Assembly: GCA_964016885.1 (NCBI GenBank)
Contig: OZ024742.1
Location: 189,534,001-189,598,000, forward strand
DNA length: 64,000 nt
Direction of reading: 5' to 3'
From: Eledone cirrhosa
Taxonomy: Eukaryota
How positions within the stretch are numbered: the stretch's first letter is position 1; each line of letters starts with the position of its first letter. The position numbers and the translations under genes are program-made. Positions 25,794-58,124 of the stretch are shown here, piece by piece. The notes below the pieces were generated by a model, which was given only the letters and a program-made list of their open reading frames with translations, was not told the DNA's origin and searched no databases.

Positions 25794-25797
<4 letters not shown>
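25560..25797 (-). mobile_element. PLE pseudo-LTR remnant with degenerate hammerhead
   Basis: Minus strand 25647-25684: CUAAUGA-A-GGA uuagug UCC-GAAA-CG-UUA; TA-flanked. Confidence 0.5.
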
Positions 25798-25844
<47 letters not shown>

Positions 25845-26340: not shown

Positions 26341-26375
<35 letters not shown>

Positions 26376-30181: not shown

Positions 30182-30216
<35 letters not shown>

Positions 30217-30676: not shown

Positions 30677-30740
<64 letters not shown>

Positions 30741-33808: not shown

Positions 33809-33877
<69 letters not shown>

Positions 33878-33889
33878 AATATGTATATG

Positions 33890-34135
33890 TGGTTAAGTTT
33901 GTTTCTAAAACAGCCAGTACAACACAAGTTAGAAATAAAGCAGTGAAAATGGAAGTAGATAAGACAAAACAAAATGGCAGTTTACACTTTTACTTTATAT
34001 CTCCTGATATTTCGGGGATAAGAGCCCTTATCAAAAGATTTAGAAAATACAAGTTAAAAGTGTAATCTGTTTTGTTTTATCTTTACTTATGTTTCCATTC
34101 TTTAGTTTTAACTTGCATTATACTGGCTTAAACTT

Positions 34136-34137
<2 letters not shown>
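33890..34137. mobile_element. Inverted-repeat PLE remnant with decayed hammerhead
   Basis: Diverged inverted arms ~33890-33993/34052-34137; minus strand UUGAUAA-GGG..CCC-C-GAAA-UA-UC; related fragment at 18290-18385. Confidence 0.5.
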
Positions 34138-34169
<32 letters not shown>

Positions 34170-34606
34170 TAGTTCCTTACATTGCACAATTTCTTTTCCA
34201 AATGAATAATTTCATTAATTCCTCTCTTGTTCTTCACACATCTTAAAGCATCTCTCACTCTAGTTTGACAATTTCTTTTTTCTGACTTGACAGCTTGATA
34301 TTTGCATGCATTTAAGAAGTAGCACCACTTTTAGCAAATTTTTTGGCCCCTTGAGACACTTAGGTCATCCTTCTTTCAGTTAGATCACACATCTATATAC
34401 AAGAGTTGTATGCAATTAAGTCCCATTTTTACTAACTCCCTTCAAATATTCTATTTTTTTCTAATGCTGCTTGATGTTTTTATCCTACCCATTTGTCAAT
34501 GCTATATATATATACATATATCTATATATATATATAAAAATATATATACATATATATATTGATATACATATATATTTATATATACACACACACACATATA
34601 TATATA

Positions 34607-34671
<65 letters not shown>

Positions 34672-35484
34672 TGTATATATATATTGTGTTAGTTGCATGC
34701 TGGCTTTGAATATATTATGTATTATCACACTATATATTTTATTTATTTTTTTACTGTTAGAATGAATTAAAAATAATAATTATATTGTAAAGAATATAAC
34801 ATAATGTATATAAGTTATGTATTTTAAATATATTCTAAATAATAGTAATTTGAATTTGTATAATATTACATGAAAAATATCATATATTAAGGCCTTTTTT
34901 AAATAATTAGAATTTTACAAACAATTCTCTCCCACTAAAAAAAAGTGAAGACAACCAATGGAAACCCTGCTGAATAACAATCTTAGACATTTGTTTCATG
35001 CAAAAGATAAAATAGTCTACCTTATACATAAATACATGCTAAACTAATTAACATACTTCACAGCATAATCAACTGATTAGTTGCTGATAACTATATTAAA
35101 CAATATTCATAAAATAAGAATGATACATGTGAACATATACATAAATTTATGTATAAACATACATGTATACACATATATATATATATATATATATATAAGG
35201 ATATATATATAATTCTTATTTTATGAATATCGTTTATATATATAGTATAAATAAAGTTTCATACACTTAACATGTGTGTGTGGCTATTTGTTTTCTAGTC
35301 CAGTTATGGCCATCACTGTATAGTGGAGGAGGCTCTTCCAACTTGGTCCCTCATCAGGCACTTGGACACAAAAAAAATGTTAAGTGTATGAATTCTTATT
35401 TATATTAAATAAGTTCTCTTGCAATAGATTGAGCATTATTTTCCTTTTATCTATGGATATCCTATATACATACATACATACATG

Positions 35485-35520
<36 letters not shown>

Positions 35521-37429
35521 AATGCAGTATCTGTTCTGGCTCCATGCACTGGGAGTTCAAATCCTGCTGAGAACATCTTTGTCTATCATCCTTCTGGTGA
35601 CAATAATTTAGGTACTAGTCAATCTCTGGAGTCAATTCTTCTTCTATCTCACCTTCCATCATTCTCTATTTATCTTTCTCGCTCTCTTTCTTGTCCCCTT
35701 TTCTCAATTAGCTACACTACACTGGGAAAAGAGCTGGAAAAATCCCTCATAGCATTCCTTTATCCTGGAATGAAGAAGGTTCTGTCTCATAGAAAATCTG
35801 TTATGCTACTGGAACTAGCCTCAAATGGTCTGATGTACATCATTTGATATCACCTACTTTTTAATCACCTTCTTTATACTCAATTATTTGGGATCAGCCT
35901 TCTCCACTTCTTCCCAATCATTCATCTTTCACATGATCCTTCCATATTAATAACCATTTGGCATTTCTCTACCCAACTACCATTATCCATATGCATCACA
36001 TATCCATACTAGCACAGTCTTCTCTCTTGCCTTACATTCTACATCTGATTTATCTTATATCCAATATTTTCCCTCTTAACTAAGTTGTTCATATATATTA
36101 TTACATATCCAGTAAAGCTTGCTCATTTCATTTCTTTTCAGCTTTCATATTCTGTGTTCATATTTCATTGTCATACAACTTCTTATTTTATACCAAGTCA
36201 TATCTACATTTCATTCACATAATGGATGTCCTTGTTGTCAACAGAGGTAACTGGTCCCTGAACATTTTCCACTCAATTCATAAATTGGGTTCGACGTTTT
36301 AAGAACACCTGCCATAACTGCTAATTATGTCACATAGGTAACAGAAGCTGTAACCTACTTCTTAGGAATTTGCCAAGTTTTTGTGGGTACTCCTATTGCC
36401 AAGTTCCCCTTTACATCTACTACAAGCCAAGTCTTTGCCAGCCCATCTGTGATCTTACTGTATCTCTCATTTACCGGCAACAGCCTTTCCCATTTAACTG
36501 CCAGGCTCTGTTCGAATGACCTGGTTGTAAAATATCTTTAGATATTGTTTTAATGTCATCCAATGTGTTATAGAATCCATGAGATTAAGAAAAATTATGA
36601 AGTATCAGTTTTATATTAAAGAAAACTGTAAGAGTATCAGTTGTATGTTATCAATTGTAAGTGTGACTGGTTGTTAAAAGAAGAGTAGCTGTATATGGTA
36701 CATAGGTAGTAAGAAACTCTTGGGAGAGTTGGACAGCAGAAGGTCTCCAAAAAAGATCCCCCCCCCCAACCACACCACCTCAAGCGAGTGTTTTGGCCCT
36801 TAACTTCTTATACTCTAAGGGGGCTGGGCTGCATCCAGGTCATGACTCCTGAGTGCCCTTCTGTTGACATTTAGCCATTCAGATATTGGAGATTTGTTGT
36901 GTATTTAAACTGTATGGAGATTTTGTTGACAGGATCTAGCTGAAACTCCTCTCCAAGCTGAAACTCCTCTTCAAACTTATATTTAAATGCTTTCTTGAGT
37001 TTGGAAAAATAGTATTGGTAGTCATGGTAGCAGTGAGACATTAACAGCATCACTGGTGCTGCTACCAACGATACAAACCATGACTCACTCGCAGTTTCTT
37101 CCTTTAGCATGTGTTAAAATACAAAAACTATGCTTCTCATGTGATCTGGTGGTCGTTTTTGTTTCTCCTCTACTAGATGCAGCTATATCTAAATCCTAAA
37201 GTCTGTCTCAAGCCAAGAGACTCATCGGCCAGAGCTTATCAAATATAATTAAGTATTCAGTTTTTCCATACTGAATATGATAGCAGTGGTGTACCATCGT
37301 CTTTCCTTGTTGAGTCAGAATTCTGTCTTTACCAGGTTTGCTCTTAGGTTTCTTGATTCTTGGCTATGAGAATTAATTTATATATATATATATATATATA
37401 TATATCATTATTCATTATTTAATATAAAA

Positions 37430-37530
37430 ATGGCTTCTACAAGACTAGAACTGTTTCATTTGTATGAAATAATCTGGAATGCCCTGATGATTTCATACAA
37501 ATGAAACAGTTCTAGTCTTGTAGAAGCCAT
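37430..37530. repeat. Perfect 41-bp-arm palindrome containing CUGAUGA...GAAA
   Basis: 37430-37470 is the exact reverse complement of 37490-37530; a single-arm copy lies at ~50540-50600. Confidence 0.85.
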
Positions 37531-38606
37531 CTCTATATTAAATAATGATGTTTTTACTCTACAAATGTTTGGATCTACATATATACATATCCCTGAGCAG
37601 AACAAACTAGTTTTGGACCATAAAGCTTGTGGGTTTCTGGATAACTGCCCAGTATGGCCTTGCTTGAAGGTGGCACTACGCAAACACACACACACACACA
37701 CACATATACATATATATATATACACACATACACACACACACACTCAGGACATAAAGAGCCATAATAAATGCTGCAAAGCATTTTGTTTGACTCCCAAATT
37801 TACTAATCCACCTACCTTTATAGAGTCAATATAATATTTGTTATGAATAGTGACTGTTTATTTCGGCATAAGTTAAGTTCAAATATGAATATTTTGAGTT
37901 GAAGATATGTGAACTGTGTATGCCTTGTAGAAGTTGCTGGTATAATATCACATATTGTTATTGTCATTCTTGTGATAATGGTGTTGGTGGCTGCTTTGTT
38001 GCTGATGTCATTGTTATTGTTGTTATTGTGTATGTTTGTATATATTGGCTGTTTCAGAAAGAGTTGGGGTCTGATTATCAGAAGATGATGAACCGCAATT
38101 TGGAGTTCAATCATTATTTTATATAAGTGTTGGGACAAATCATTACAATTATATATAATTATGATATGCAAATCCTGTTTTATTTAATTTTTCTGATGTG
38201 ATGAAATATTTTTTGTTCTATAATCCAACCACCACCATCATCATGATCGTCATTCTTTTATGTCTGCTTTCCATGTTGGTGTGGATCAAATAGAGTGTAA
38301 TGGCTTGAGATTTGACAGACTGCAGAATCATGTCTCACTTGTATGATCCATTTTTGCCATAATTTCTACAGCTGGATACCCTTCCAAACACTAACCACTT
38401 TCCAGAGTGTACAAGGAGTATTTTAACATGGCACCAGAGATACTGTTATGCTCTAAATAATTGTTCATTGCTTTTGTTCAATTGTCACCCCTTTACAAAG
38501 TGTACTGGGTGCATTGTAGCATGGTAGCAACACTACTAAGTATGTCTTAAATCTGACAAGAATAAATGCTACTCACTATCCTGCATCATATCTTTTTAAT
38601 CATTAA

Positions 38607-38827
38607 CCCTTTAGCATTTACATTACTCTATATTTACTATTATATTTTCACGGTAAGGTCTTTACCTCCCATAATTATCTCACATAATATCAAATCTATG
38701 AGATTTTGACATTATTTATTTTGAGAACAACACATTAACATAAGTAAGAGCAGCCTGTTATGGCTAGTTTGAACAGAAAGAGATGAGAGAATTCTGGCCG
38801 GATACGGGCAGTTTAAATGCTAAAGGG
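38607..38827. mobile_element. piggyBac-type MITE
   Basis: TTAA-ccctttagcattta ... taaatgctaaaggg-TTAA: perfect 14-bp TIR and TTAA TSD. Confidence 0.85.
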
Positions 38828-41399
38828 TTAAATATCTAACCAGTTTAACAGTATTTTTCAATTTTATCACACCCTCCCTCAGTTTTCAAGTATCTGCTGT
38901 ATATCAAGGGCAGAATTTAGTCCTTTGTTCAAAGATACAGGAGAGGATATAAAATTAAAATACGCCAGAACCATTAAACTACTTTGTGGATCTCCTTTAA
39001 AAAAAAAAATAATCAAGCATCATTCCACTTAGTCATTTCTTAGCCAGTTTGTCAGCCTACAACATTTATCTGTAATTAACATATCAATACAATTTGAAAC
39101 AATGATATCACAGCTAGTCATTGAAAGCTTCTATAATAAGCTAGCACACATCATATAAAAAATACAGAAGCTCTATGGAATTTTTTCTAAAGCAAAATTC
39201 TACATTGATAAATAAAAAAGAGTTTCTAAATCTCAATATATACTAGATGTAAAACAAAAACAACAGCAAAATCTCTCCATTCATTTCATCATCCATTCTT
39301 TACTCTTAATTTCTCCTCACATTACACTTTATCTTATATTTGCATACATTCTCTTTATCTCTCTTCCATATACATTCTCATTCTTATCTTGTTTTCTTCT
39401 GTCTCTCTGTATCTCTCTATCTATCTTGACTTTTTCCTTCCTCAATCATTTTTTTTTCATATATCAATGTCACCTTTTACTTTCACTTTGTTTGCCTCCC
39501 ACTTTCTCTCAAATAATTAACTCTTTCATTCTTACTTCTTACTTTTCATCCCCTTGGGTTCTACTGTCCTGAAATAATGGTTGCTAGCAGTTTGTGGGGA
39601 AGTGAAAATCAATTAAATTAAATCAACTCCAGTACTTGACTGGTATTTTATTGCATTAATCCCAGAAGTAATGACAAAATAGAATTGGATTTGAACTCAC
39701 AACATAAAGAGCCAGAACAAATACCCCAGAATATTTCTGTCTGAATCTCTAACAAATCTGCCAATCCACTACTCTCAATACTAATAATGGTTTCTGGGGA
39801 AGGGGAAGTCAATTAAGTACTTTATTTCAACCTCAGAAGACTGAAAGACAAAGCTATCTTTGGTGGGATTTGAACTCAGAATCTAAAGAGCCAGAACAAA
39901 AAGTATAAACCATATTTTTTCAACACTCTAATGATTCTGTCAATCCATTTCTCATCTAAGAAGTAGTTAAACTGTCTGGTCAAGCTTTGTTTAGCTGACC
40001 AAAAACTAACTCATGAACAAAGATTTTCATATTTTATAGATGCATATAAATAGAAATTTATATGCATCTAAATATTTTCTGTTCTTGTGTGTTTGTGTAT
40101 CTATTGACAACCTTCAAAGCAAGTGGTGATATTTCTTTATATCCCTTATAGACACTGCAGTACACTGGTTCAATGAATGTCAGCAGCGTATATCATTCTT
40201 AAAATAAAATATGGGTTGATGTCAGGAATGGCAGCCATCTATAGAAAAACTGCTTAAAAAGTCTCACCTAACTCACATTGGTATAGAAAGCAGACATAAA
40301 AATGATGATGTATTTGTTTACGAACATGACAAATATTATCTCATAATGTGAAAGTAATATTTTGTCTGTTAAAATAAAGATTAAAACAGCTGTTAATGAG
40401 GCATCAAACAGAAACTATACAACAGATTTGGTAACAAATCTACTAATTTAGAATTTTATTAAAAATAGTTTATGAAGACCAAGCAATTTAATTAAATTAT
40501 GCTGAGAATATTAAAACTGGATTTGTAGTTGTGATATCTATCCACAAAATACATAGTCAGTACTGCGTAGAAATACATTAGCAAGACATTCTTGAAAAGT
40601 ACAAAATAGCACTAGGATTGTGTTGCATTAAACATTAAAAATTCCTTACATTTTTACAATGATCTGTACACTAGTAAAGATACTTCAAACATTTAAATTA
40701 ACAAACACATTTCTAGACATTTTCTACTACATCATTACAGGATGTTAAGAATTAATGTGAATAGGAAGAGTAAAAGCTTGAATCAGAAACAGATTCTAAA
40801 AGATTCTAAAGCTGTGATATTGATTAAGAATTTAGCAATCAATACAAAAGAATTTGTTTAATGTATGGAGAAGTGACCTCTGGTGGCCGCAGTACTCTAC
40901 AACCCAGCCTAACAATTCATAAATACTTTAATTATCAGTCAATTTTTCTCTCTCCATCTCTTCTTTTGTCCCTCCTTCTCCTTTCATTTCCCCCTCTCTT
41001 TTTCCCTCTTTCTTCTGGTCTCCATCCTCTATCCCTCCCACTACCTCTCTTATACACACACACACTTGAAAGAAGAAACTCCATTCTAGATAAAGGATTA
41101 GAATTTTAAACAATTTTCTTTTTAGAAAAATTAGAAAAACAGGTCATAGTATTTATTATTGTTATGTTCATAACATATGTTAACATGGTATACCTAGACT
41201 AATGGTTCTCAACCCTTTCACAACCATGATGTCCTTTTGTTTAAATGAATGTTCTCATGGTCTCCTTATGCTGCTCCATTTTCTCACCTTGCAGATTGCT
41301 TTGCAGTGTGAATAGAAGGAGAGAAATTTTTATTCTTAAAGATTAATGGATACTCATTAGTCTGTGTATATTATGTTTTTAACAAAGTACTGCATGAGC

Positions 41400-41915
41400 T
41401 GGTGCAATAATGCACCAGCTCCAGCACTTAGTCATCAGATGAAGCGAAGGAAGTAGATGTAAAAGCCAAAATTGCTATCTTCAGTTTGATGTTTATTCAT
41501 AATCTTACCTATGGTCATGAATGTTGGGTAACAATCACAAATATAAGCAGCCGAAATGGGGTTCCTGTGAAGGGGGTTTTGAATTATGTTACTCAATAGA
41601 TTTCATAGCTCAGAGTTCAGGGAGTTGCTCAAGGAAGAGTCACTGCTTATTTGCATTGAAAGATCACAGTTCCAGTACTATAGTCAAGTGTTTAGAATGT
41701 CTAAGGAAAGAATTGCTGGAAAGACTTTATGGGCAAATCCAACTAGCAAGCGACCCACAGGTAACACATGAGCAAGATGGTTGGACAACTTTTATGAGCT
41801 TAGCTGGTCTTGCTTTGGGGATTCAGCCAGATCATTTGAAGATGGTTGCTTCTGATAGGACCTTCTGGAAGGTGAGTCTAAGAACAAGATCCCCATGACC
41901 CTCACAAGAATAAGT
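41400..41915 (+). mobile_element. Degenerate non-LTR retrotransposon (RTE-like) 3' fragment
   Basis: Frameshifted remnants LTYGHECW, AAEMGFL and IERSQFQYYSQVFRMSKERIAGK..KRPTG. Confidence 0.65.
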
Positions 41916-42626
41916 GAATGAAGGAGAAGAAATAGAAGAACGAAGTAGTTGAAATTGCAACGAAAAGAGAGAAGTGTTTAGATTCAATAGGGTGTTTATA
42001 ACAAAGTACTGGACATTGTTATAGTGTGACAATAACAAGTGAAAGAAAGATATGCAACACAAACACATGCCAATTACTACATCACTTGAAACCCAGGGGC
42101 CAAAAACCTCATGTTTTTAACATGGTAGGCCTAGTTCAATGATGAAAACTGCAACATAATTTAAGTTTATGAGGGAGGTTGATGAAAAGTGAAGTTAACC
42201 TGGGCAGATGTTGAACTCAGAGCAGAAGGGGATGAAACAAATACTGAAAGGCATTTTGTCCTACGCTGTAACAACTCAGCCTGTTCAACACAATAAATAT
42301 GACTTTTATTTAGATATTTTTTTCAGTAGTAATACTTATTTTATTTTGATAGAAAAGGATCTGTAAGTGTTGTAAAATAAAATATAAAATAATTGATCTA
42401 GACTGTTAAGATATTATATATATTATGTATTTATTTTAATATGTAGCTTCATTTTATTTTCAAGTGTGTCATTTACTTTTTAGCTATACTTATAATATAT
42501 CTGTATATGTGTGTGTGACTATGTATATAATTATATATATATATGTATGATTATATATATACACAAATATGTGTGTGTGTGACTATGTATATAATTATAT
42601 ATATATATGTATGATTATATATATAC

Positions 42627-42667
<41 letters not shown>

Positions 42668-42774
42668 TGTATATACACATACACACACACACACACACAC
42701 ATACACACATATATATACACATATATATACACATATATGTATACATACATATATATATATATATACATATATGT

Positions 42775-42805
<31 letters not shown>

Positions 42806-42808
42806 CAT

Positions 42809-42865
<57 letters not shown>

Positions 42866-43116
42866 TACATGATATATATATATATAGGAGGGGACTGCAT
42901 GTCTTTATCTGAGTACACATCTTTCTATTATATTTATCTTTCTGTCTTTTTCTTTCTCAATGACTCCACTCTTTCTCTTTTTGTCTCTCTACACACATAC
43001 ATATACACATACAGCAAGTACCTGGAATGTGTAATGAATGCTTCTCTACATGCATCCTTAGAATTATTAGTATTATTATAAAGAAATCATTATATATATA
43101 TGAATATATATGTATA

Positions 43117-43166
<50 letters not shown>

Positions 43167-43288
43167 GATATATATATATATATTTTTATATATGAATATA
43201 TATATATATATATATATTCATATATATATATATATGAATATATATATATATATATGAATATATATATATATGAATATATATATATATA

Positions 43289-43338
<50 letters not shown>

Positions 43339-43494
43339 TATATATATATTTTAGAGAGTTAAACAAGATTCAATGAGTACATCAAAGAATGAGTTTTACA
43401 GTAGATTGAAAGCACTCTACAGTAATATATTTTCCGGAGCTATTAATATTAAATTCAAATATTAACAAAATAGATGTTCTTGTGATCAATTAAA

Positions 43495-43558
43495 TTTTAT
43501 TATACATATTTCAGAGGTACTTGAATCAAGTTCAACAGTACGTCCTCATCAGATAAAA
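43495..43558 (-). ncRNA. Minimal hammerhead ribozyme (left arm)
   Basis: Reverse complement of the 45420-45483 motif, differing in the stem II loop. Confidence 0.7.
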
Positions 43559-45419
43559 TAAAATGATACATGGCATACCCTGACATGTTAGATGGTTAAG
43601 ATTTAATCAAAGAAGTGATTAACTTATGAGAAAACTCAATATTTATACCCTGGAAATGAGAACATGGGAAAACGTAATAGAATCAATAGAGAGGTTGTGA
43701 GTAAGAAAAACATTGCTTTAATGTAACAGTTATAGAGTTTTTAAAGATTGAAATACTACTGTAGGACTATAGAGGAAGACTATAGATATCTGGAGTTATA
43801 ATTTTTTTAGTTTTTAGTTTGAGAATGCAACTGATAGATAATTAAAGAGAGGGGGAGATAAAGGGGAGTAATTTATGCACAAATATTCTTCAGACACATA
43901 TAAACATGTATAGCCTTGACAGTTAAATTTCAAAATATTTAATTTATGTTATTTTAGGGCAACAAATCAAAATTTTAGGTTTTAAAAGTTGATGGTTATT
44001 TGTGTTATAAATTTTATAAATTTTATAAATGTGTTAAATTTCTAAAATTCAAAGTTTTATGAAAACAAATTTAAAGGATTTACTAGGCCGGCAAAAGAAA
44101 AATATATACTGTTCAATATTCACGCAAAGGCTTTTGGGATATTATTAACTTTGATCCAGACCTTTATTTTTCTATCTCTCTTTTAAATATTGTTGTGATA
44201 TCTAACCTGTACATTTTTACGGACCTTATTTTGAACTGTGGATCATTCATGCGTTTACATTTTTATATATATCTATGTATTTTATAGTTATGCAAGTATG
44301 AATTTATTATCTAAGATTATAATCGTTATCCTTTACTAAATGTATACCGTCTCATTAATACTTAGTATATCTCTCTATATGCAGTTGGTGCAAATATGTT
44401 TATATTGTATAATAACATAATCATAATTATAGTTCGGTATATCTCTGTATATAGTTTTGTGCAAATATGTTTATAATGTATAATAACAGAATCATAATTT
44501 TAGTTTGGTATAACTCTATATATAGCTTGTGCAAATATATTTATATTGTATATTAACATAATCCTAATTAGAGTTCGGTTCTTCCCTAGAAGGCTGAACT
44601 AATGTAGTGATCTATTATAATATATGAACAAATAATAAAAAATAATAATTTATAGTCCTCTTATTACGATCAATGCACACATATATATATATATATATTT
44701 ACAGCTGAAAACTCTGGTTTAATTGTTAAACTTTAGACACTATAACTATTTAACAATAAATTCCTTGATAATTATAACTGTAAATACTTCATAAACTATA
44801 CATACGGAAAATGTTGACACTGTTACAAGTAATATTGTTAAAGATTACCTTTGCGTGAATATTGAACAGTATATATTTTTCTTCCACGGGCCTAGTAAAT
44901 CCTTTAAATTTGTTTTCATAAAACTTTGAATTTTAGAAATTTAACACATTTATAAAATTTATAAAATTTATAACACAAATAACCATCAACTTTTAAAACC
45001 TGAAATTTTGATTCGTTGCCCTAAAATAACATAAATTAAATATTTTGAAATTTAACTGCCAAGGCTATACATGTTTATATGTGTCTGAAGAATATTTGTG
45101 CATAAATTACTCCCCTTTATCTCCCCCTCTCTTTAATTACCTATCAGTTGCATTCTCAAACTAAAAACTAAAAAAATTATAACTCCAGATATCTATAGTC
45201 TTCCTCTATAGTCCTACAGTAGTATTTCAATCTTTAAAAACTCTATAACTGTTACATTAAAGCAATGTTTTTCTTACTCACAACCTCTCTATTGATTCTA
45301 TTACGTTTTCCCATGTTCTCATTTCCAGGGTATAAATATTGAGTTTTCTCATAAGTTAATCACTACCTTGATTAAATCTTAACCATTTAACATATCAGGG
45401 TATGTCATGTATCATTTTA

Positions 45420-45483
45420 TTTTATCTGATGAGGACGTACTGTTGAACTCCATTCAAGTACCTCTGAAATATGTATAATAAAA
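45420..45483 (+). ncRNA. Minimal hammerhead ribozyme (right arm, sense to Kv2 pre-mRNA)
   Basis: ttttat-ctgatga-gga c gtac tg ttgaa ctcca ttcaa gtac c tct-gaaa-tatgta-ta^-ataaaa; predicted cleavage after 45477. Confidence 0.72.
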
Positions 45484-45671
45484 TTTAATTGATCTCAAGA
45501 ACATCTATTTTGTTAATATTTGAATTTAATATTAATAGCTCCGGAAAATATATTACTGTAGAGTGCTTTCAATCTACTGTAAAACTCATTCTTTGATGTA
45601 CCCATTGAATCTTGTTTAACTCTCTAAAATATATATATATATATTCATATATATAGATATATATTCATATA

Positions 45672-45738
<67 letters not shown>

Positions 45739-45776
45739 ATATACATACACACACACACATATATATATATATATTG

Positions 45777-45815
<39 letters not shown>

Positions 45816-45835
45816 TGTATATACATATATTTATA

Positions 45836-45887
<52 letters not shown>

Positions 45888-45891
45888 TATG

Positions 45892-45976
<85 letters not shown>

Positions 45977-46316
45977 GATGTGACAAATTAATTTAGCATC
46001 ACTTTCAGTCTTTAGAATTTATACACTGCAACTTATTTAAATAACATTTATTTTATGCTATGCTACATTTCATTTTTTTTTTCTTACTTCCTTAATATCA
46101 TTTATCACTGTTTACTTATGCATATCAACTCTAAACTATTCTCTGATAACAGCATCTACATATATATTTATATATATATATATATATTCAGCTATGTTGA
46201 GGTTACTGAATCTTGCTTATAACATAATGATTAACAGCAATACTAAACTCTTTCTTCATATTAGTGTATATTAAAAATCATTCTAATATAGATCATTATT
46301 ATATAAAAAGGATGGG

Positions 46317-46498
46317 CGGTGGATTGGCAGTATCAGTAGAGGGTCGGACGCCATGCTTTCCAGCATAGTTACGTCCCTTTACGATCTGAGTTCAAATCCC
46401 GCCGAGGTTGACTTTGCCTTTTATCCTTACGGGGTCGATAAAATAAAGTACCAGTAATGAACTGGATAATTGCTGGCCTTGTGCCTAAAGTAGAAACA
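46317..46498 (+). mobile_element. SINE family A, full length
   Basis: A/B boxes; 18-bp TSD attattatataaaaagga at 46295-46312 and 46499-46516. Confidence 0.9.
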
Positions 46499-46668
46499 AT
46501 TATTATATAAAAAGGAATTCTCACTATATCTCAATATAAAAACAATATTGCTAATATTTGACAATAAAAATAATTAACATTAGAATATATGAATTGAGAC
46601 TTAATATTTATTGTGAATTATTTTGAAATAAAATTGTGTTTATGTGTGTGTGTTTGTTTGTATAAATA

Positions 46669-47288
46669 CATCATCATCATCATCATCGTTTAATGTCCAT
46701 CTTCCACACTTGCATGGGTTTGGACGGGAATTTTCCCACTTGAGGCAAGATTGGTTGATTTGCTCGCATAGGACTGTCTGGCGGGTTTTCTACGGCTGGA
46801 TGCCCTTCCTAACACCAACCACATTTACAGTGTGGACTGGGAGGTTTTTACCGTGTTACCTACACGGCCACATTACAGCGTGGACTGTGTGTTTTTTTGT
46901 CGTGACACCTACACGACCTCATTTGTTTCAGCCTGGATGTTGTGGTACCAACATAACTTTACATTGAAAGGGGTGGTGTGGATGGGGTGGGGTGGGGGTA
47001 GTGGGACGGGGTGTATTTTTGTTAGAGGTGCCTACTGACTGACTGTAGGTTCGCTTTGTACTTAGGCAAGGCGGGTCTTCTGTATTACTGTGTAGTGCCA
47101 AAGATCTCGGTCCAGTGACATTGTCTTGGAGAGGTGTAAGTGTGTGAGGCTGGAATTTATCAAGTCGTCCCAGGTTTTTCTGGTTCTGCCTACTAGTCTT
47201 CTCTCGAGTAAACAGCATCTGTTCCCTCTTATTCCTAATTTCTCCCTTAGTTTGTTTATGCTTTGCCGTTCACGTATATTACTGTTAC
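46669..47288 (-). mobile_element. RTE-clade LINE 3' fragment with long 3' UTR
   Basis: LREKLGIRGNRCCLLERRL..GRTRKTWDDLI..DRDLW C-terminal remnant; (ATG)n tail at 46669-46687. Confidence 0.7.
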
Positions 47289-48209
47289 ATATATATATGT
47301 GACATTTTTCGTGATGCATGGTATTGCTGGCCATAGGCAAGTCCCTAGCAAGACTAAAAAGCCATGTCCGTTATGTTCATACTTAAGTATCAAATGATGG
47401 GATTATTTGAAATCTAGTTGCAGCCATCATAATATATATATATATAAGCATAGATGATCCTGTAACTCTTGAGGGAGTCATACGGGTGCTGTATTGACAT
47501 AGGGCATTTTTAGAGCATTTTAAAATCTTGTGTGGCCCAATCCTCTCCAGGTCTGACATACATATATATATATGTACAAACCCTATTGATAAAATATCCA
47601 AATTTTGTCTAGGAAAAGTGTACGTATTTGATGGGGTTCAGTTTCTAATTCCCTTTGAAAAGGCCCCTTTACCTCCACACACATAGCCCAGTAATCTGCC
47701 TTCCATGTATGGAATGTTTCTTCTGGAAAGGCTCCCAGTTCCACCTTTAGAGTTTATATGTTGTCCACTCAGCTCTCAAAGAAATCAGAAGAAGCTATGT
47801 TGACAAATAAGTAAAATACTTTATATCAGCTATGTTGAATAAGACTGGATATTGCCATGATGCAGCTGCCGGTTTTGTAAGGTCCACAGATATGGTTGCA
47901 CTGAAGAACATCATAAAAGTGTTAGAGGACTTCCTGGCAGTACTCCATTGTAATTAGTTATCCTTCTGATGTGTATTCATGACGGACAATGCCTCTGAAA
48001 TTGAAGACAGTCTTATATGTAGCTTCACTTACAGTTCTTCACACCAAACATTTGTCTCACTCAGATTATTACTTTCCACAGGAAAATATATAGTTGGATA
48101 TTTTTTCAACAGACATCATCTATGTGCGTACATGTATGTGTATGTGTGTAAGTGTGTGTATGAGAAAGAGAGTGAGTGAGAGAGAGAGATAGATAGAGAG
48201 AGAGAGAGA

Positions 48210-48278
<69 letters not shown>

Positions 48279-48884
48279 TTTATCTGTATCGACATTCCTG
48301 AGGATTACATTAAGGGTGAAGGCTATATGTGACTCTGGAATACTCAGCCACAAAAATACTAATAGAAATAACTGGAATACTGAACATTGAAACTGACAGC
48401 CTCCATTTACCTCATTTTATATTGACAAGCATGTGTATATACATGAATGTATGTGTGTGTCTGTATATGAGTGTATTTATAGAGAGAGAGAGAGAGAGAG
48501 AGTTGAAATAGATTACCTATATATATAATATATATATAAATGAAAGGTATAGAAAACATTGTAGCAAAAAGCCAAGAGTATTCCATAATATATAATATAT
48601 ATATATATATATATATGTATATATGATGATGATGATGATGATGATATATATATATATATAATATACTATATTATATATGATGATATATATGTATATGAAT
48701 ATATATGATGATATATATGTATATGAATATATATGTATATATATATGAATATATATATATATATAATATACTATATTATATACTATATAATATATTATTT
48801 ATACTCCAGTCCTACAAATTGTAGAGTGCTACTTATCCGATATTTGCATTGCTTTATTGTGCTACAATAAAACTCACCTCCTAC

Positions 48885-48971
<87 letters not shown>

Positions 48972-48976
<5 letters not shown>

Positions 48977-50300
48977 TAAAAAGCAAGAGTAGAATAGCAC
49001 AGAAGTATTTTTAAAGAATCTTTTTGTCTGTTTTCTTTAATCTGACAGAATAAATATTACTTTCTATATTTGTTACATTAATTCAATTTAAGTTTTATCA
49101 AATATTATCGGTTTCAATTGGTATGTCAATCTTATCTAATATTAAAAAAGTCTGTTCTCATATTCTGCGATCAGTTAGGACATATGTGAATTTTCACTCA
49201 AGATCTCTTCTTATATATATATTCTTTATGATGGTGTGGTGGTGAATGTGAAAGCGGTGTTTTACAGGTCAGGATTCAATTGATTTACTAGAAAATTCTA
49301 ATGATTTAAATAGAAAATTCCCTTTCTATTCAAAATATAGGCTCTTATGGCATTTTGTTCTCCTGTGTTATGTGTGTGTAGGTGGGATTCCATTGCATCA
49401 AGATTCATGTTTTTTAGGGTTTGTAGATAAAACCAAGAAAAAAAGAGTAGATATAAATATATCATCATCATGAGACGCTAGCATGGGTTATTAATAGATA
49501 TAAAGATGATAGAAAGTAAAAAGAATAGATATAAATATATCATCATCATGATATGCTAGCATGGGTTATTAATAGATATAAAGATGATTGAAAGTTTTAT
49601 TGAAAATACAATGAAAGATATCTAAATAAAACTGGATAATATTAATGTAATAAAAAACATTTTTCTGCAAATTTTTTTTTCAATCATGAAGAATTGATTT
49701 TGATAGTGCAATGTGCTAGAAAAGTTGTGATTTTTCTTTTGTCTTGTGGTGTGTGTGTGTGTTAATAGGGTTCCATTGTGTCAAGAGTTAAAGTTTATTT
49801 GGGGTTTGAAGATAAAAACAAAAATAAAAGAATGAATAAATAAAAAACAAATATAAATTTTATTTATTATTTTCATTCTTTTCTTCTAGTTTTTACCTTC
49901 AAACACTAAATAAATTTGAACTCTTCAACTCTAGTAAGTTTGGACGTTAGTATAGCAATTAAATCCTAAACGTTTGAACCCTACTGCTACCCTCACAACC
50001 CCAGCTTCATAAATAATATATATAAAAAGAATTATTGAGAGAAAATTCACATATGTTCTAACTGCTCACAGAATATGAGAACAAACCTTTTTAATATTTG
50101 ATAAGATTGACATAGCAATCGAAACTGGTAATATTGAAAAAATTTAAATCCACTTAATGTAACAGTTATAAAAATATTTATTCTGTCAGATTTTAAAAAA
50201 AAAAAAAAAAGGATCTTTAAATATTTCCAATTTTCTAATTTTACTTTTTACCCTTTTTAACCTTTGATGTGTATGGAATGTTACCAACTTTTCCAACTAT
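48972..50300. mobile_element. Old PLE-derived element with diverged inverted arms and decayed hammerheads
   Basis: 48972-49235 is inverted at ~50005-50255. Plus strand 50090-50138: uuuaauau-UUGAUAA-GAUUG acauag CAAUC-GAAA-CUGG-UA^-auauugaa. Nested palindrome at 49780-49925. Confidence 0.7.
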
Positions 50301-50312
50301 ATATATTTATAT

Positions 50313-50820
50313 GGTGGATTGGCAGTATCGGTAGAGGGTCGGACACCATGCTTTGCAGCATAGAGTTACGGCCCTTTATGATCTGAGTTTAAGTCCCGCC
50401 AAGGTTAACTTTGCCTTTCATCCTTATAGGGGCGATAAAATAAAGTACCAGTCATGCACTGGGGTTGATTTAATCGACTTTCCCCTCCCCCCGAAAATTG
50501 CTGGCCTTGTGCCTATATGAGAAACCATTATTTTATATAGAAATGGCTTCTACATGACTAGAACTGTTTCATTTGTATGAAATCATTGGGAATGCTAGGT
50601 GAAATAGAGAGTCATTGGTACTTATGAGTTTCCTCGGTGGATTGGCAGTATCATTAGAGGGTCGAATTCCATGCTTTGACGTATAGAGTTACGGCCCTTG
50701 CCATTCTGATTTCAAATCCCGCCGAGATAAACTTTGCTTTTTATCCTTGCGGGGTCAATAAAATAAAGTACCAGTAATGCACTGGCTAATTGCTAGCCTT
50801 GTGCCAAATGTAGAAACAAT
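50313..50820 (+). mobile_element. Two SINE family A copies (50313-50527, 50635-50820)
   Basis: A/B boxes and conserved body/tail. Confidence 0.85.
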
Positions 50821-50864
50821 TTATAAATAAAGATATATATATATATCATTATTTTCATCATTGA

Positions 50865-50898
<34 letters not shown>

Positions 50899-50995
50899 TT
50901 CTTTATAAATTGTTTCTACATTTGGCACAAGGCTAGCAATTACCCAGTGCATTACTGGTACTTTATTTTATTGACTCCGCAAGGATGAAAGGCAA

Positions 50996-51037
<42 letters not shown>

Positions 51038-51039
<2 letters not shown>

Positions 51040-52087
51040 GCGTTAGCTAACAGTGGCTTCTCGCAACCTATCACTTACTCTCCCACTAACAACAACAGCA
51101 ATAAGAAAATAAAGTGTAGCAATAGACAAACTATCTGGTTCTCTCCTCCCTTCTCACTCAACATTAAAACCAATGTAAGCAAAACATTTATAGCCCTCTT
51201 AGATAGACACTTTCCCATAGGTCATAAATACTGCTCCATCTTTAACCGACACAAAGTAAAACTAGGATACTCCTGCACTAAGAACATGAAAGCCCATATC
51301 ACCAACAGCTCTAAGAGCAACACCCCACCAGGGTGCTCTTGCCGTAAGCCCAAAGCTTGTCCCCTTCAACAGCAATGCAACACACCCACTGTAATTTATG
51401 AAGCCGTGGTCACTTCCAACCGACTAAATCAACCACAGGAGGTCAAATCCTATGTGGGTATGATGGAGGGCCGATTTAAGGAATGCTTCCTGAACCACCA
51501 GTTGACCTTTAGGTATCCGGACAGACGTTCATCCACGAAACTCACGAGCCACGTATGGTCTTTCAAGGACTCAAGTATAGACTACTCCATTCAATGGAAA
51601 GCCATCACTAAGTCCAAGCCATATGCAAGGGGCAATCCATCGTGTGGACTATGTATTGATGAACGAATAAATATTCTAAAGAGATTACATAATAGCAATT
51701 GCCTAAATCAAGAAATGAATCCTTCACACGTTGTCCACACATCTGGAAACACCTCTTACATAACTACAAAGCTCCGGATTGAATTACAACAACATCCTAA
51801 TGTTCTTATCAACTAGAAACTTTCAGACTTTCACAGTTATCTCCCTTACACCTCTCGCACACAATTTAGTATTGCCTGAGTGAAGTGACCATTTTTGCGC
51901 ATGCGTGTTCATACGGTTGTCCTTCCTGTTCCGTATAACCATGTCCATTACGAGCTGAGGATCCGCTAAGGTGAAACAATTGTTCTCGGTATGGTGAACT
52001 AACTGTTGCATAACCATTTCTACCTAACTCGTCCCATGAACTGAGTGCTCTACCACTACGGATATTACCTTCCTGTGTTCTACCACT
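51038..52087 (+). mobile_element. 5'-truncated Penelope-like retroelement (linker + GIY-YIG endonuclease remnant + 3' pseudo-LTR)
   Basis: Open from 51040: IWFSPPFSLNIKTN..LLDRHFP..IFNRHKVKLGYSC..CSCRKPKACPLQQQC..VIYEA..YVG..FKECFLNH..CGLCIDE..LN. A 1-nt frameshift near 51710 restores RNESFTRCPHIWKHLL, with TGA at 51780. Flanked by (TA)n. Confidence 0.85.
51945..51994 (+). ncRNA. Hammerhead ribozyme in the PLE 3' pseudo-LTR
   Basis: CCAU ua CGAG-CUGAGGA-U CC gcuaa GG U-GAAA-CAAUUG-UU^-CUCG gu AUGG; palindromic stem III loop; predicted cleavage after 51984. Confidence 0.75.
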
Positions 52088-54134
52088 ATATATACACATA
52101 CATATATAGTGTAAACAAATTTACATGAAGAAGAATTAAGTACTCACTACCAGTGTAGTGTGAAATATTTGCATATTGGAACTGTAAATATATGAACTAA
52201 CACAGTGTTACTAATAGTTTCATGACACAGTTAAAAGCTCAATCAATCTTTGGACAATATATAACTAACAACATTCCACAACATACAAATAGTTTCCTGC
52301 CATGTACTGAGTTAAGGATAATAGAAGAACTCTCACCAAACCAATTTCACTGCTTATAATTTCTCTTTTTAACCTTTTTGGCACATATTTCTGATGTCAT
52401 ACATTGTAACTTGAAAATTTGAAAGTCCCAAATGCAGAAAATAATTGTAATAACAGTAAGTCACAATGAATTCTTTCTGAGAAAACTAGGTAAATTCCCC
52501 TTAAGAGACTAAAATAATTTACTTAATTTTCTCTTTTACTTATAGTGATCATTTCATATTACAGTCATTTTCAGCAATTGGGACTCATACATTCACATGT
52601 CAAGCTCTTCCAGTGCTTTTCTAATACATAAGTATCCATATTTGAATTTATTAATAAAGGGTTTAGAGGGATTCACTGAAATTATTAATTATTTCATTAT
52701 TAAGATGGTATTTGTAGCATAACTTAATAAGAGGTTCTTATATGAAATGTTGTTGCAAGATTTTAATCTGAACAGAAACACTTTAAGTTAGGGGGTTTTG
52801 TTTCATACAACCATGAGTAGATTTGGGAGGAGTGATATCAGAAGGCTAAATTTGTCAATCCAAGGAAGACAACTTAAATCAACTTAAATAATTTTATCAT
52901 CATGTTATATATTTTGTAACAGATACCATAGAGTCATGGTGCATGACAGGAAACTAGCAGTATCTCCCTCTAGTTGCATCATATGACTACAGGCTGTTTT
53001 GTGGAAGGTCACTAGTACTATATTAACTGAATATTGACTAAGGTTATAAGCTTTTCACGAAATTGCATGAAGTTGCTAGGATATTGGGCTTTCAATAAAA
53101 AAAATGTTGGTTTCAATTCTTAGACCATGTAGCAGATTGTTTCCTTGATTGTTTCCTTGTATTTCATTTCATGTTTCTCATGTTCATCAACTAAAAATGA
53201 GTACCAAATGGAATTTGCTTTCTAGGCAGGGAGAAATCTTGTATTCTCAGTCACTTAATGCTTCATGAAACTTGTGTAAGCTCTGGCCCATCTACAAGCA
53301 TAGATGAAGCATAGATGTGAAAACAATGACTTTCTGATAAATCTTTTAATAAAGATTTATCAGAAATGTATACATTGATTAAACCAATTTATTATTATAT
53401 GAATGTATGATTGTATGCGTGCATCCATGTATGTATATATGTATGTATGTGTGTATGTAAATGTGTTAGTATGAATGTATATATGTATGCCTGCATTCAT
53501 GCATGTATGTATGTATCTATATATACATGTGTTTTGTACATATGTTTGTTTGTATGAGTGTATGTATAGGTGCAGGCATGTGTATATGTCTATGTGACTC
53601 TCAAGAGCATGTTTGAAATATAAAATATACTATTTTATTTCAAAATGAATTTAAAACTAAAAATTCTCAAATTGATTAAGGTTTATTAGTTTATTTATTG
53701 TTCATAATTATTCCAGTTTGTCGTAGTAGAACTTAGAATCTAACCAAAATTCTTAATTATACTAATGTTGGTTGCATAATTTAAACTAAGCTTTAGTTTG
53801 CTTGAGCACTCTTAGTCCAAAGTTCAAATTATTTTTCCTTTTTCACATATGTTAGATTGTCACTTTGATCGTTGATCACCCAGTATTCATATATACATTA
53901 TGAAATATATGCTTTGAATTATGTCAACTTAAGTTTGACAAACTATAGATGTTGCAATGGTCTGTAGTTTCAATTCATGCTTGACTAAAACTATTTCATT
54001 GATTAAACTATGCCTCTTTTTTTCTCTCTCTCTCTCTTCCAATTTAACAGGTTTTAAAAAAGTAATTATGATAATTTTAATGTTAATAATAAAACTGATA
54101 ATGACAATGCAAATAATAATAATGACAATGATAA

Positions 54135-54169
<35 letters not shown>

Positions 54170-54296
54170 TTAATAATAATAATAATAGGTGTGTATTTAT
54201 ATTCTCCCATAAATGAAAACTCTGAACAATTCCAGGGAAAATCCTTTTATAACTTGCCTACTCATGAGTTAAATTTTGTTCTTTGGGTTTAATATA

Positions 54297-54321
54297 AGGA
54301 TCGTCGTCGGGTAGAAGTCAT
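54297..54321 (+). promoter_or_regulatory. Candidate ECS for outer-pore codons 57622-57646 (GDIYPTTIL)
   Basis: aggatcgtcgtcgggtagaagtca is the reverse complement of exon tgacatctacccgacgacgatcct at 23 of 24 positions, including 19 contiguous Watson-Crick pairs. Confidence 0.85.
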
Positions 54322-54881
54322 GGATGGTAGCAAAGAAATTGACCAAAAGATTTATGTCACCTTTCTCAGGGTGATACATTTATCAGTCATGTTTCTTTTC
54401 GCTACCATACATGGGTTATGGGATGAAATTTTTCTCATGATTAGGAAGTTTGTCTCACCTCCACCCGCTAATGTTTGAAATATATATTTAAAAAAATATA
54501 TTTTCTGTTCCTTTTATTTAAATTTGATATCGAATCTTACATTAAAGATGTCATGATAAATATGTAGTTATAAATAATTTGTGTTTATATGTCACTGTTA
54601 AATTTTGCAGAAATTTTAAGATTCTATAAAATGTTACTTCGTCTTCCAGTTACATGTATTTTTTTAAGCCATAAACCTGAGGACTTCTTTAGCTGTTTAT
54701 TTTTTTTTTATTTCCACTTGAAGACATTCTTCCGAATTGATTGTAAAGTTATATTCTACATATTTGAATTTGTATATATACCTACTACATTTCAATACAT
54801 TAATTACATATAAACAAAACATAGCATATATATATAAATATATAAATATAAAAATCTTATATACATATGAACATAGCACTA

Positions 54882-54936
<55 letters not shown>

Positions 54937-55189
54937 CATATATATATATACATATGATATAATATAATATGAATATGTGTATGGGTGCTTCTGTGTGTGT
55001 ATGTGAGAAAGAAAGATAAAAAGGGTAAGAATAAATGTATACAGACTCTACTTATATACACTAACTTCTTCCGAGCAGTCATTAAATCAAATGTACTTTA
55101 GGTGTTACTTTCTACATTATCGGGAAAGAAAAATGAATTGAATATGTTTTAGTCTTCTTAACATTCAAAATATAGTCACAATAGCTTTT

Positions 55190-55210
55190 GAAAACATCAT
55201 TGATGGACCT
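55190..55210 (+). promoter_or_regulatory. Candidate ECS for S5 codons 57473-57493 (GLLMMFL)
   Basis: gaaaacatcattgatggacct pairs with exon aggtctattaatgatgttttt at 21/21 positions (3 G.U wobbles). Confidence 0.75.
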
Positions 55211-55557
55211 TGAGAGGTGATTTACCTTCATCCTCTAAATATGACAAAATACAACCTAAACACTTTCACTTGCCCTTCCAGTCAGCTCCTCCCGCTTTGG
55301 TGCAAGAAAGACAAATGTATGACTTTATTACATTGAATACAATCATTAATCTAGCTTCACTTGAGTGGGAAGGTGTTCCTTATATATATATCTATATATA
55401 TATATATAAGGTCTGAAGATCACCAAATAGATTTAGAGATATATTATCTCCAATAAAGTAATCGGCATTCAGTATGAAACCAGTGGGTAATGTAGTGTAA
55501 TCTCATTACTTTGTAACCATACATTCATATATATATATATATATATAGGTATGTATG

Positions 55558-55589
<32 letters not shown>

Positions 55590-55643
55590 TATATATATAT
55601 ATATGTGTGTGCATATATATGTATATATATATATATGTATATA

Positions 55644-55695
<52 letters not shown>

Positions 55696-55723
55696 TGTGT
55701 GTATATATATGTATATATATACA

Positions 55724-55755
<32 letters not shown>

Positions 55756-56413
55756 GATAGATATAGATATAAACAGATAGATAGATACTAGTTAGTTGAA
55801 TTTTAATAGAAAACTTATTCTCACATACAACAATATTTTAACAATTATGTTAAACATACTTCACTTATTTTGCCTTAAAAAGTAGAAAGAACACAAAACA
55901 GAACTTGCATCTAACTTCTTAAAATATTAGATAATCCTGCAAGTATGAATGTTCACACTTTAGATCTACACATATACAACAAACTTATAGATCAAAATTT
56001 AGTATTCAGATACCCTAAATTTATATATATATTTTTTTTTGCAGTACAGCTTGAAAACTTGTGTATAAATGTTTTTATTATTGGTGTAACCATATATATA
56101 TTTTTCCTATCAATGGCTTTGCTTATATTCATATATATTGTTTATTTATTTTGGTTTGTTTGTTGTTGTTGTTATTAGTTGTTATTGATGTTGTTGTCAA
56201 ATTTGTTATCCCTGCTTCTGGTTCTCTCTCTTCCAGCTTTTTTATTAGTGATTTACTTCAAATTTTCAGACTTCTTTTTTTTCTTAAATATGCTTATTTC
56301 TATACATATTTATATATATATATACATATACATATATATACATGTGTGTATATATTTATGTATATGTATTTATATATTCCCATACATAGATATCTGCTAT
56401 TCTGTGGATTGTC

Positions 56414-56461
56414 AGCGTAACAGCTAGCACACCTCTTCATGTACAGCATCCACTACCAATA
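56414..56461 (+). promoter_or_regulatory. Candidate editing-complementary sequence (ECS) for S6 codons 57656-57700
   Basis: Intronic agcgtaacagctagcacacc-tctt-catgtacagcatccactaccaata pairs antiparallel with exon tgttggtagcgtatgttgtatatg-t-ggtgtgctagttattgcgct (about 41 pairs including G.U), with C56421 opposite A57693. Confidence 0.85.
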
Positions 56462-56505
56462 TTTAGTGGCTAAAGCTGGCTGCTATTTAAAAATATATAT
56501 CAAAA

Positions 56506-56521
56506 GCCGTCTCCTACTGTC
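56506..56521 (+). promoter_or_regulatory. Candidate ECS for selectivity-filter codons 57608-57623 (TVGYG)
   Basis: gccgtctcctactgtc pairs with exon gacggtaggatatggt at 15/16 positions (3 G.U, one U.C mismatch); collinear with the 56414-56461 block. Confidence 0.6.
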
Positions 56522-56545
56522 CCTTTGGATGACCCACAAATATTT

Positions 56546-56557
56546 ACTACTACTACT

Positions 56558-56604
<47 letters not shown>

Positions 56605-56730
56605 AACTACTACTACTACAACTACTACTACTGCTACTACTGCTACTACTACTACTACTACTACTACCATCAACAACACTACCTCTACCACTATAACTAC
56701 TATTGCCACTACTACTATTACTACCATCAT

Positions 56731-56772
<42 letters not shown>

Positions 56773-56820
56773 CATTATTACTACTACTACTACTTCTACT
56801 ACTATACTACTACTACTATC
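56546..56820. repeat. (ACT)n microsatellite
   Basis: Direct reading; lies between the candidate ECS cluster and the exon. Confidence 0.95.
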
Positions 56821-57047
56821 AACAGCATATTTTATATATATGCTACTTTGCTTTCAACTGTCTTTCTTCCGAAATTTTTTTCAATACTCCTTTACCCACT
56901 CCTTATCTTGTCAAAGTCATGCTTTGGTGTGAGTAACAACTTCCTATTATTTATTTAAGTCCCTAATCTAGGAGTATCTTTTAAGAGATCCGTTCGTTAA
57001 CCCTGTGTATTTTTTCAGCGTTACCAGAATTTGAAAACATTTTTCAG

Positions 57048-58124
57048 GTCTTGGCCATTGTGTCCATTCTCTTCATTGTCCTGTCTACCGTGGCGCTAAC
57101 ATTAAACACAATTCCTGGGCTCAAAGGTGAAGGAGAGCATGAAGGGGCTGATAACCCACAGCTTGCAATTGTAGAAGCTGTTTGCATTGGATGGTTTACC
57201 TTGGAATATCTGGGACGATTCTGGGCCTCCCCGAATAAGTGGAAGTTTTTCAAAGGACCTTTGAACATTATAGACCTATTGGCAATCATGCCTTATTTCA
57301 TTTCCCTAGGATTGACTGAGACCAACAAGAGTACGACGGAACAGTTCCAAAACGTCCGCAGAGTGGTGCAAATCTTTCGAATAATGAGAATTCTGCGAAT
57401 TCTAAAACTTGCAAGACATTCAACTGGTCTGCAATCCTTAGGGTACACTTTACAGAGAAGTTATAAAGAGCTAGGTCTATTAATGATGTTTTTGGCCATT
57501 GGAATACTCTTATTCTCAAGCCTTGCCTACTTTGCGGAAAAAGACGAACCAGGAACTAAGTACGTTAGTATCCCCGAAACATTCTGGTGGGCTGCCATCA
57601 CTATGACGACGGTAGGATATGGTGACATCTACCCGACGACGATCCTGGGAAAAGTTGTTGGTAGCGTATGTTGTATATGTGGTGTGCTAGTTATTGCGCT
57701 TCCAATTCCAATCATTGTCAATAATTTCGCCGAATTTTATAAAGATCAGATGAGAAGAGAGAAAGCATTAAAACGTAAGGAGGCTCTCGAGCGGGCGAAG
57801 AGGAATGGAAGCATAGTCTCCTTCCACTCCGTCAATCTGAGGGATGCCTTCGCCAAAAGTGTCGACCTGATGGATGTTGCCTCCGAAGTTCCTAGAAACG
57901 ACTGGGATACAAACAGCGTGGAGACGAAATCCATGAGTTCACCACCGCCTTGTGTGATGCGGGGATCCAACCCCAATACACCCAAGTTGAGTGGGCAAGG
58001 AGGAACGACAAACTTCAACTGCAAGGAGAATCAGGAGAACCCCAGCAACACCAACTTGTTGGATATAGATGAGGAGTCTTTGCATCGGATGACGACCCAA
58101 GCTTCAACTGATACATCAATGCAG
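57048..58124 (+). CDS. KCNB (Shab): Kv2/Shab channel exon encoding S1-S6, pore (TVGYGD) and proximal C-terminus
   Basis: Acceptor ttttcag|GTC at 57047/57048 joins in phase 0 to give AAR|[15 protein letters not shown]4 is [14 protein letters not shown], the pore is [13 protein letters not shown]6 has the Kv2-type PIP motif, followed by [14 protein letters not shown]. Donor CAG|GTGAGT at 58124/58125; 1077 nt = 359 codons. No further confident exon in the window. Confidence 0.97.

Follow-up and report, generated by a model that had tools for sequence, protein, structure and literature searches.

The intron that precedes the pore exon of Kv2 in Eledone cirrhosa probably holds two editing-complementary sequences (ECSs), each serving as its own guide. 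In the mechanism that we propose, ECS1 would pair in the unspliced pre-mRNA with exon positions 57623-57646 and present A57631 to ADAR (Tyr>Cys, outer pore mouth), while ECS2 would pair with 57656-57708 and present A57693 (Ile>Val, A-C mismatch) together with A57663 (Ser>Gly). Both duplexes would form before splicing, and ADAR would then deaminate A57631, A57663 and A57693. A hairpin that adjoins the ECS1 helix is predicted to fold alone at all sea temperatures. Coordinates refer to the window, meaning the whole 64,000-nt stretch of DNA that was analysed.

Two intronic complements of the Kv2 pore exon

Two Kv2 coding exons lie on the plus strand of the window. The upstream one (10415..11509), found by tblastn with the Octopus sinensis protein (96%), encodes the N-terminus and the T1 domain and ends in SMAAR; its 5' limit is provisional, and a GT donor follows at 11510. 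The other (57048..58124) is a Kv2/Shab exon of 359 codons that spans S1-S6 and the proximal C-terminus and matches the O. sinensis LOC115214995 protein at 99%. It differs from that protein at 2 of 359 residues, and at both the window residues agree with a squid-type cluster, not with Octopus/Argonauta. The exons are separated by a 45.5-kb phase-0 intron, also on the plus strand (11510..57047; GT at 11510, CAG at 57045-57047), in which tblastn with the O. sinensis protein detected no further Kv2 coding match and the CpG o/e is 0.27. This intron carries the candidate guides, with ECS1 and the hairpin located 2.7 kb ahead of the acceptor.

Other features of the window deserve mention in their own right. 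At 54020-54067, about 230 nt before ECS1, a pyrimidine tract, an AG, 11 nt and GTAATT resemble a frame-shifting micro-exon. The same intron contains a 1,040-nt inverted repeat (43091-44130 / 44848-45887, 94% complementary) that is a likely hyper-editing substrate, and near-perfect palindromes of 45-46 bp at 1926-2025 and 37431-37530 are probably foldback repeat elements. Within the exon, a palindrome of the S2-S3 region (57234-57280, 16/17 core) could form a local hairpin.

ECS1 (54297..54320, plus strand) can pair with 57623-57646 over 23 of its 24 nt, with a perfect run of 19 nt and A57627 facing A54316 as the sole mismatch; the predicted duplex has an energy of -44.1 kcal/mol at 37 C. It covers A57631, the A of the Tyr TAC codon (squid residue 576; Tyr>Cys), which stands in a UAC context opposite a U of ECS1 located 3,319 nt away. 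The sequence-only reading had pointed out this complement, and shuffling bears it out: when 2000 dinucleotide-shuffled exons were compared with ~51 kb of non-coding window, one gave a perfect run of at least 19 nt, and the other real controls gave 13-15 nt. ECS1 is moreover the only perfect complement of at least 14 nt between the exon and the 64-kb window, and it contains three CpG dinucleotides. Its gapped, G-U-tolerant score (43.5) was equalled by 22/214 shuffles over the whole intron plus downstream sequence and by 17/1000 over the proximal 5 kb. Since this score is less unusual, the strength of ECS1 lies in its perfect run and its landing site. These statistics, together with the squid cDNA and the published edits described below, support ECS1 as a putative distal ECS for the GDIYP Tyr, which we take to be the external TEA-site residue. 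The title of a cited reference calls Kv2.1 Y380 an outer-pore residue.

ECS2 (56406..56461, plus strand) is a candidate guide for S6 that was absent from the sequence-only reading and that, judged by pairing, appears to be the stronger of the two. Detected in a gapped scan, it pairs with 57656-57708 in a duplex of 47 bp, including 6 G-U pairs, with an energy of -61.9 kcal/mol, and its score was reached by 0/214 and 0/1000 shuffles. C56421 lies opposite A57693, the A of the Ile ATT codon (squid residue 597; Ile>Val) in a UAU context, forming the A-C mismatch, with C opposite the target A, that ADARs prefer. A57663, the A of the Ser AGC codon (squid residue 587; Ser>Gly) in a UAG context, is paired. 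Both candidate guides are on the transcribed strand, and opposite-strand controls reached at most 36 and 15 nt.

The elements follow one another in the order ECS1, ECS2, target 1, target 2, with 9 nt between the targets, so that the two helices cross as in a pseudoknot. Because they cross, each site would have its own guide and could be set separately. Where two synonymous positions differ, ECS2 fits the codons of distant relatives (AGT, CTG), not those of the window (AGC, CTT), and its pairing score with clam-like exons is 50-55, versus 58 with its own exon; the synonymous pattern, at two positions only, hints at an old element.

Two further complements were considered and set aside. ECS3 (55188..55210, plus strand) pairs over ~21 bp, G-U included, with S5 at 57473-57495, and 116/1000 shuffles reach its score, so it is not significant alone and stays within chance. 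A 13-nt perfect complement (55969-55981 / 57669-57681) overlaps the ECS2 target, and its length is also within chance. For the squid cDNA differences at residues 391, 489, 490 and 496 we found no clear intronic partner, and thus exonic structures must serve some sites.

Are the codons under the two duplexes edited? The window codons TAC, AGC and ATT correspond to Cys576, Gly587 and Val597 of squid cDNA CAA74748.1. The cluster to which this sequence belongs has seven members; five carry Tyr/Ser/Ile, and P0258 carries Cys and Val. Patton 1997 is said to have called the squid Tyr>Cys change an edit, which differs from the genomic Cys listed for squid in a later table. All three pore-S6 recoding sites of that table (Y>C, S>G and I>V; Porath 2019, Table 2, PMC6453909) fall within the two duplexes. 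The same paper lists Tyr>Cys editing for bumblebee and fly as well as for O. vulgaris, O. bimaculoides and Sepia. Ile>Val is edited in each of its four cephalopods, Ser>Gly is edited in its two decapods, and Ile>Val and Tyr>Cys of Kv2 are among the few sites common to insects and cephalopods. The sequence-only reading had taken Tyr>Cys recoding as established in squid and fly; the fly half stands (Y660C, 0.62), whereas for squid the Cys is present in cDNA but is listed as genome-encoded in Doryteuthis (PMC6453909). Alon 2015 gives 22 recoding sites for a KCNB2 homologue, as a count only, and the supplements of Shoshan 2021 and Albertin 2022 that were accessible contain no Kv2 rows (supplement sources PMC8382921, PMC4384741, PMC9699675 and PMC9068888). 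From these comparisons we infer that A57631 is edited in E. cirrhosa as well.

Genomic residues at these positions vary among species. At the Tyr position, Cys is found in 14 of 258 pattern-matching proteins (P0001-P0260), from squid and also from spider, tick and centipede. At 57663 the window encodes Ser (AGC), and Gly is the residue in proteins of O. sinensis, O. bimaculoides, O. vulgaris and Argonauta. Because decapods edit Ser>Gly, the edited residue looks genomically fixed in those octopods, and the window appears to retain the editable state.

The hairpin beside ECS1 and competing explanations

An imperfect hairpin of ~37 bp (54319..54413, plus strand) abuts ECS1 with a 2-nt overlap and is, from its folding, a candidate ADAR-recruiting stem. 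The four helices that the sequence-only reading had named in it are all present. The hairpin folds at -35.4 kcal/mol (z -7.3, 0/200 shuffles) with boundaries that were picked post hoc, and in a 151-nt context its z is -4.2. Its outer stem has a predicted probability of 0.93-1.0, and it forms a separate helix at a junction with the ECS1 duplex. A search of sequencing runs with 54260-54470 (15 sampled words) listed 7 runs, no RNA run among them, a result that bears on neither expression nor conservation. In run X1, a 761-nt contig matches 54170-54822 with 0 differences and is the sole contig on the hairpin; because X1 may be the source sample, this match gives no independent support. Run X4, from another organism (share 0.13), covers only a repeat at ~54460-54530 and the edge of the stretch, and RAD run X6 contributes 1 read at ~54270-54340, too little for use.

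What might this hairpin do? It may be a constitutive ADAR-loading (inducer) stem, an analysis-based suggestion to which we give somewhat less than an even chance, and otherwise it is incidental. That ECS1 and ECS2 are real guides and the hairpin an incidental inverted repeat, which is a sub-case of the two-guide explanation, comes close to an even call. The window holds five stronger 100-nt foldbacks elsewhere, the hairpin ranking 6th among its non-overlapping 100-nt loci and falling outside the top 10 with a coarser step; its minus strand comes close in folding energy (-32.4 kcal/mol, against -35.4); and the guides of the eight other Kv2 loci described below have no flanking hairpin (0/8). 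AT-repeat foldbacks of 40-116 predicted pairs share the intron, so ADAR may not need the hairpin. Against coincidence, however, the hairpin starts within 2 nt of the end of ECS1, for which a rough, post hoc estimate of chance is ~0.4% (~1% counting three elements), and it is single-copy in run X1 and hence not a dispersed repeat.

A further explanation would keep the editing and discard the first guide: ECS1 would be a neutral inverted micro-duplication, and editing of the Tyr would rely on a hairpin within the exon, as in Kv1.1, and might follow splicing. The near-perfect identity of ECS1 suits a young copy, but its centring on the edited codon is then unexpected. Mature, intron-free K+ channel mRNA is a substrate of squid ADAR2 (PMC7192619), and the Rfam model K_chan_RES (RF00485), which describes the Kv1.1 exonic hairpin at the same S6 Ile>Val position, matches 57612-57725 with 65 bits, above the gathering threshold of 51. 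Kv1.1, however, is intronless and pairs with itself, whereas the window exon has intronic partners and no stable local fold at the target region (z -0.39 and +0.12). Because the K_chan_RES segment (z -0.39) folds no better than its shuffles, 65/200 of which fold as well, coding similarity is the probable source of the Rfam match. By itself the exon reaches -24 kcal/mol, compared with -44 for the ECS1 duplex and -62 for the ECS2 duplex, and we regard this explanation as improbable.

That the hairpin is an intronic pri-miRNA adjoining ECS1 by chance, which could double as an inducer, seems to us quite improbable. Its ~37-bp stem and 5'-arm 22-mers with 15-19 paired bases would suit a pri-miRNA, and such stems can act as inducers (PMC5654063, accessible part), but the 4x4 and 3x1 internal loops and the 4-nt apical loop are atypical and the hairpin has no Rfam match up to E 5. 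Six short motifs of the hairpin had 0 hits in four supplement files of Zolotarov 2022, which carries no weight here because these files may lack miRNA sequences.

Finally, the sequence-only reading had proposed that the 5' arm of the hairpin swaps between its own 3' arm and an exon 9-mer (57591..57599, plus strand), which could tune editing, for example with temperature. The alternative helix does exist on paper (54323-54331/57591-57599, 9 bp with one G-U); it lies in register just past ECS1, no second helix of this kind appears among 17 exon tiles, and it forms (P 0.99) once the 3' arm is blocked, which means that protein binding could induce it. In addition, the 2-4 bp at the ECS1/hairpin junction, which ECS1 has in common with the base of the hairpin, are the only ones that breathe in folding, and they shift with temperature. 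However, the helix is unpopulated in folding: the fold lies 7-9 kcal/mol uphill over 2-37 C (6.8-8.7 kcal/mol from 37 to 2 C), co-folding at several temperatures gave it P 1e-7 (2 C) to 2e-5 (37 C), and the most favourable of six settings (three contexts, two dangle models, 4-28 C) gave P <=2.5e-3. The 3' arm is, moreover, transcribed ~3 kb ahead of the exon, and the ECS1 duplex is present in both states; since its P stays at 0.98-1.0 throughout, hardly anything would be left for a switch to alter. An RNA thermometer or conformational switch would have two folds close in energy, which were not found in the physiological range, and we regard such a switch as highly improbable. Temperature effects on editing are possible generally, by routes other than a hairpin swap. 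In fly Shab they are site-specific, site 6 rising and site 7 staying flat (PMC4299485, accessible part).

Complements upstream of the pore exon in distant Kv2 loci

We examined 80 metagenome Kv2-like loci, none of them cephalopod-like (best identity 87%), and kept 31 after dropping those with no pore motif, no long pore exon, <700 nt upstream or >95% identity to a locus already retained; flanks among the 31 are short and some loci are possibly paralogues. In eight of the 31 (L001, L003, L006, L013, L014, L016, L037 and L041), the upstream flank beats all 60 exon shuffles. The target measures ~750 nt, and all eight matches fall on pore-S6, between -18 and +104 relative to the Tyr codon; the Ile position is covered in seven of them, and antisense controls score at most 37.5. 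For nine targets, the window included, the own score was reached by 0/78 unrelated flanks. However, scores of 41.5-44.5 also arose by chance, with octopod intron blocks or with unrelated flanks as partners, which makes L016 (41) and L037 (44.5) borderline cases.

In a protein tree, L001 and L003 cluster with Mya, Ruditapes and Dreissena; L006, L013 and L014 form an unplaced clade; and L016 and L037/L041 are on the arthropod side. Because L006/L013/L014 and L037/L041 are close kin, the eight loci amount to about four independent lineages. The base opposite the Ile A is C in L006, L013 and L014 and U in L003, L037 and L041. At L016:456-518, where the score is borderline, an S6 complement is kept though the genome encodes Val at the editing site (G-C pair). 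L001:312-384 and L003:819-926 each hold a single nested imperfect complement running from the Tyr/Phe codon region through S6, where the window has two crossing guides. The flanks of L032, L037-L041 (downstream), L035 and L073 (upstream) carry same-strand copies of the pore region, with control scores of 169-237, suggesting tandem Kv2 duplicates.

Are these elements related by descent? The complements are islands of similarity within the L001/L003 and L037/L041 pairs (75% over 72 nt and 83% over 82 nt). Across seven transfers between pairs of loci, one-sided changes affected 2-5 pairs and two-sided changes 0-1, and 2-14 pairs were broken; the differences that keep a pair are mostly Watson-Crick/G-U swaps, and in most comparisons broken pairs are as common as one-sided swaps or commoner. 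With so few two-sided changes and so many broken pairs, covariation support is modest. The direct similarity of ECS2 to the distant elements is no greater than target complementarity would produce. No upstream complement was found in 23 of the 31 loci, including the termite-like L004 (2.4 kb flank) though insects edit the site, and L011 gave only a weak match (34.5). An ECS1-like Tyr guide was detected in 0 of 12 non-cephalopod loci tested, and the ECS1 19-mer in none of the 80 metagenome loci.

One account of these data is that the S6 Ile>Val guide in the upstream intron was inherited from early protostomes while its sequence turned over together with the exon, that non-coleoids including clams recode Kv2, and that coleoids added a crossing Tyr guide fused to an ADAR-recruiting hairpin, like an engineered guide RNA, which would give the pore Tyr a control of its own. 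We consider this account speculative and rather unlikely. Such inheritance would span molluscs and arthropods, more than 500 million years.

Known systems and implications for coleoid recoding

How does the two-guide arrangement compare with known systems? In engineered ADAR-recruiting guide RNAs the hairpin directly abuts the guide, as the window hairpin abuts ECS1. A crossing order of two Syt1 helices was reportedly described by Reenan 2005. The Drosophila Shaker e2 and e3 ECSs offer a close parallel, being two upstream-intron elements of a Kv channel, each with its own site(s); they differ in belonging to a fly Kv1 and in being backed by conservation across 12 genomes (PMC2606942, accessible part). 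Drosophila Syt1 and paralytic likewise use several long-range intronic elements, and paralytic combines an ECS, an intronic hairpin and a pseudoknot, as in the layout of the window (PMC5705066, PMC4299485). In paralytic, however, a hairpin loop docks on a site, as mutations have proven, whereas the window elements are upstream and predicted only (same sources, in their accessible parts). The inducers of GluA2, GluK2 and Gabra3 also place a long imperfect stem near a short edited duplex, but they are conserved and a large loop separates them from the edited stem (Daniel 2017, PMC5654063); the window hairpin, a separate helix in folding, abuts ECS1.

The conserved Shab/Kv2 recoding described in the accessible parts of Porath 2019 (PMC6453909) and Zhang 2023 (PMC9989829; Y>C, S>G and I>V) concerns the same three codons; those parts give no guide structure for it, and the word 'intron' occurs 0 times in the main text of Porath 2019. 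Ingleby 2009 stated that the structures directing squid Kv2 editing were unknown (PMC2606942, accessible part), and some squid Kv1.1 sites stay unedited in vitro, for which the lack of intronic sequence has been put forward as an explanation (PMC10278661). In the openly accessible literature that our searches covered, we found no description of Kv2 guide structures.

Kv2 has long been a classic target of recoding in coleoids, and named coordinates for its candidate guides make the mechanism testable. ECS1 and ECS2 suggest that part of coleoid recoding relies on intron sequence kilobases from the edited site and would then have to take place before splicing. Since elements of this kind also occur in clam-like and arthropod-like loci, they provide a way to ask whether the edit shared by insects and cephalopods is inherited or convergent.
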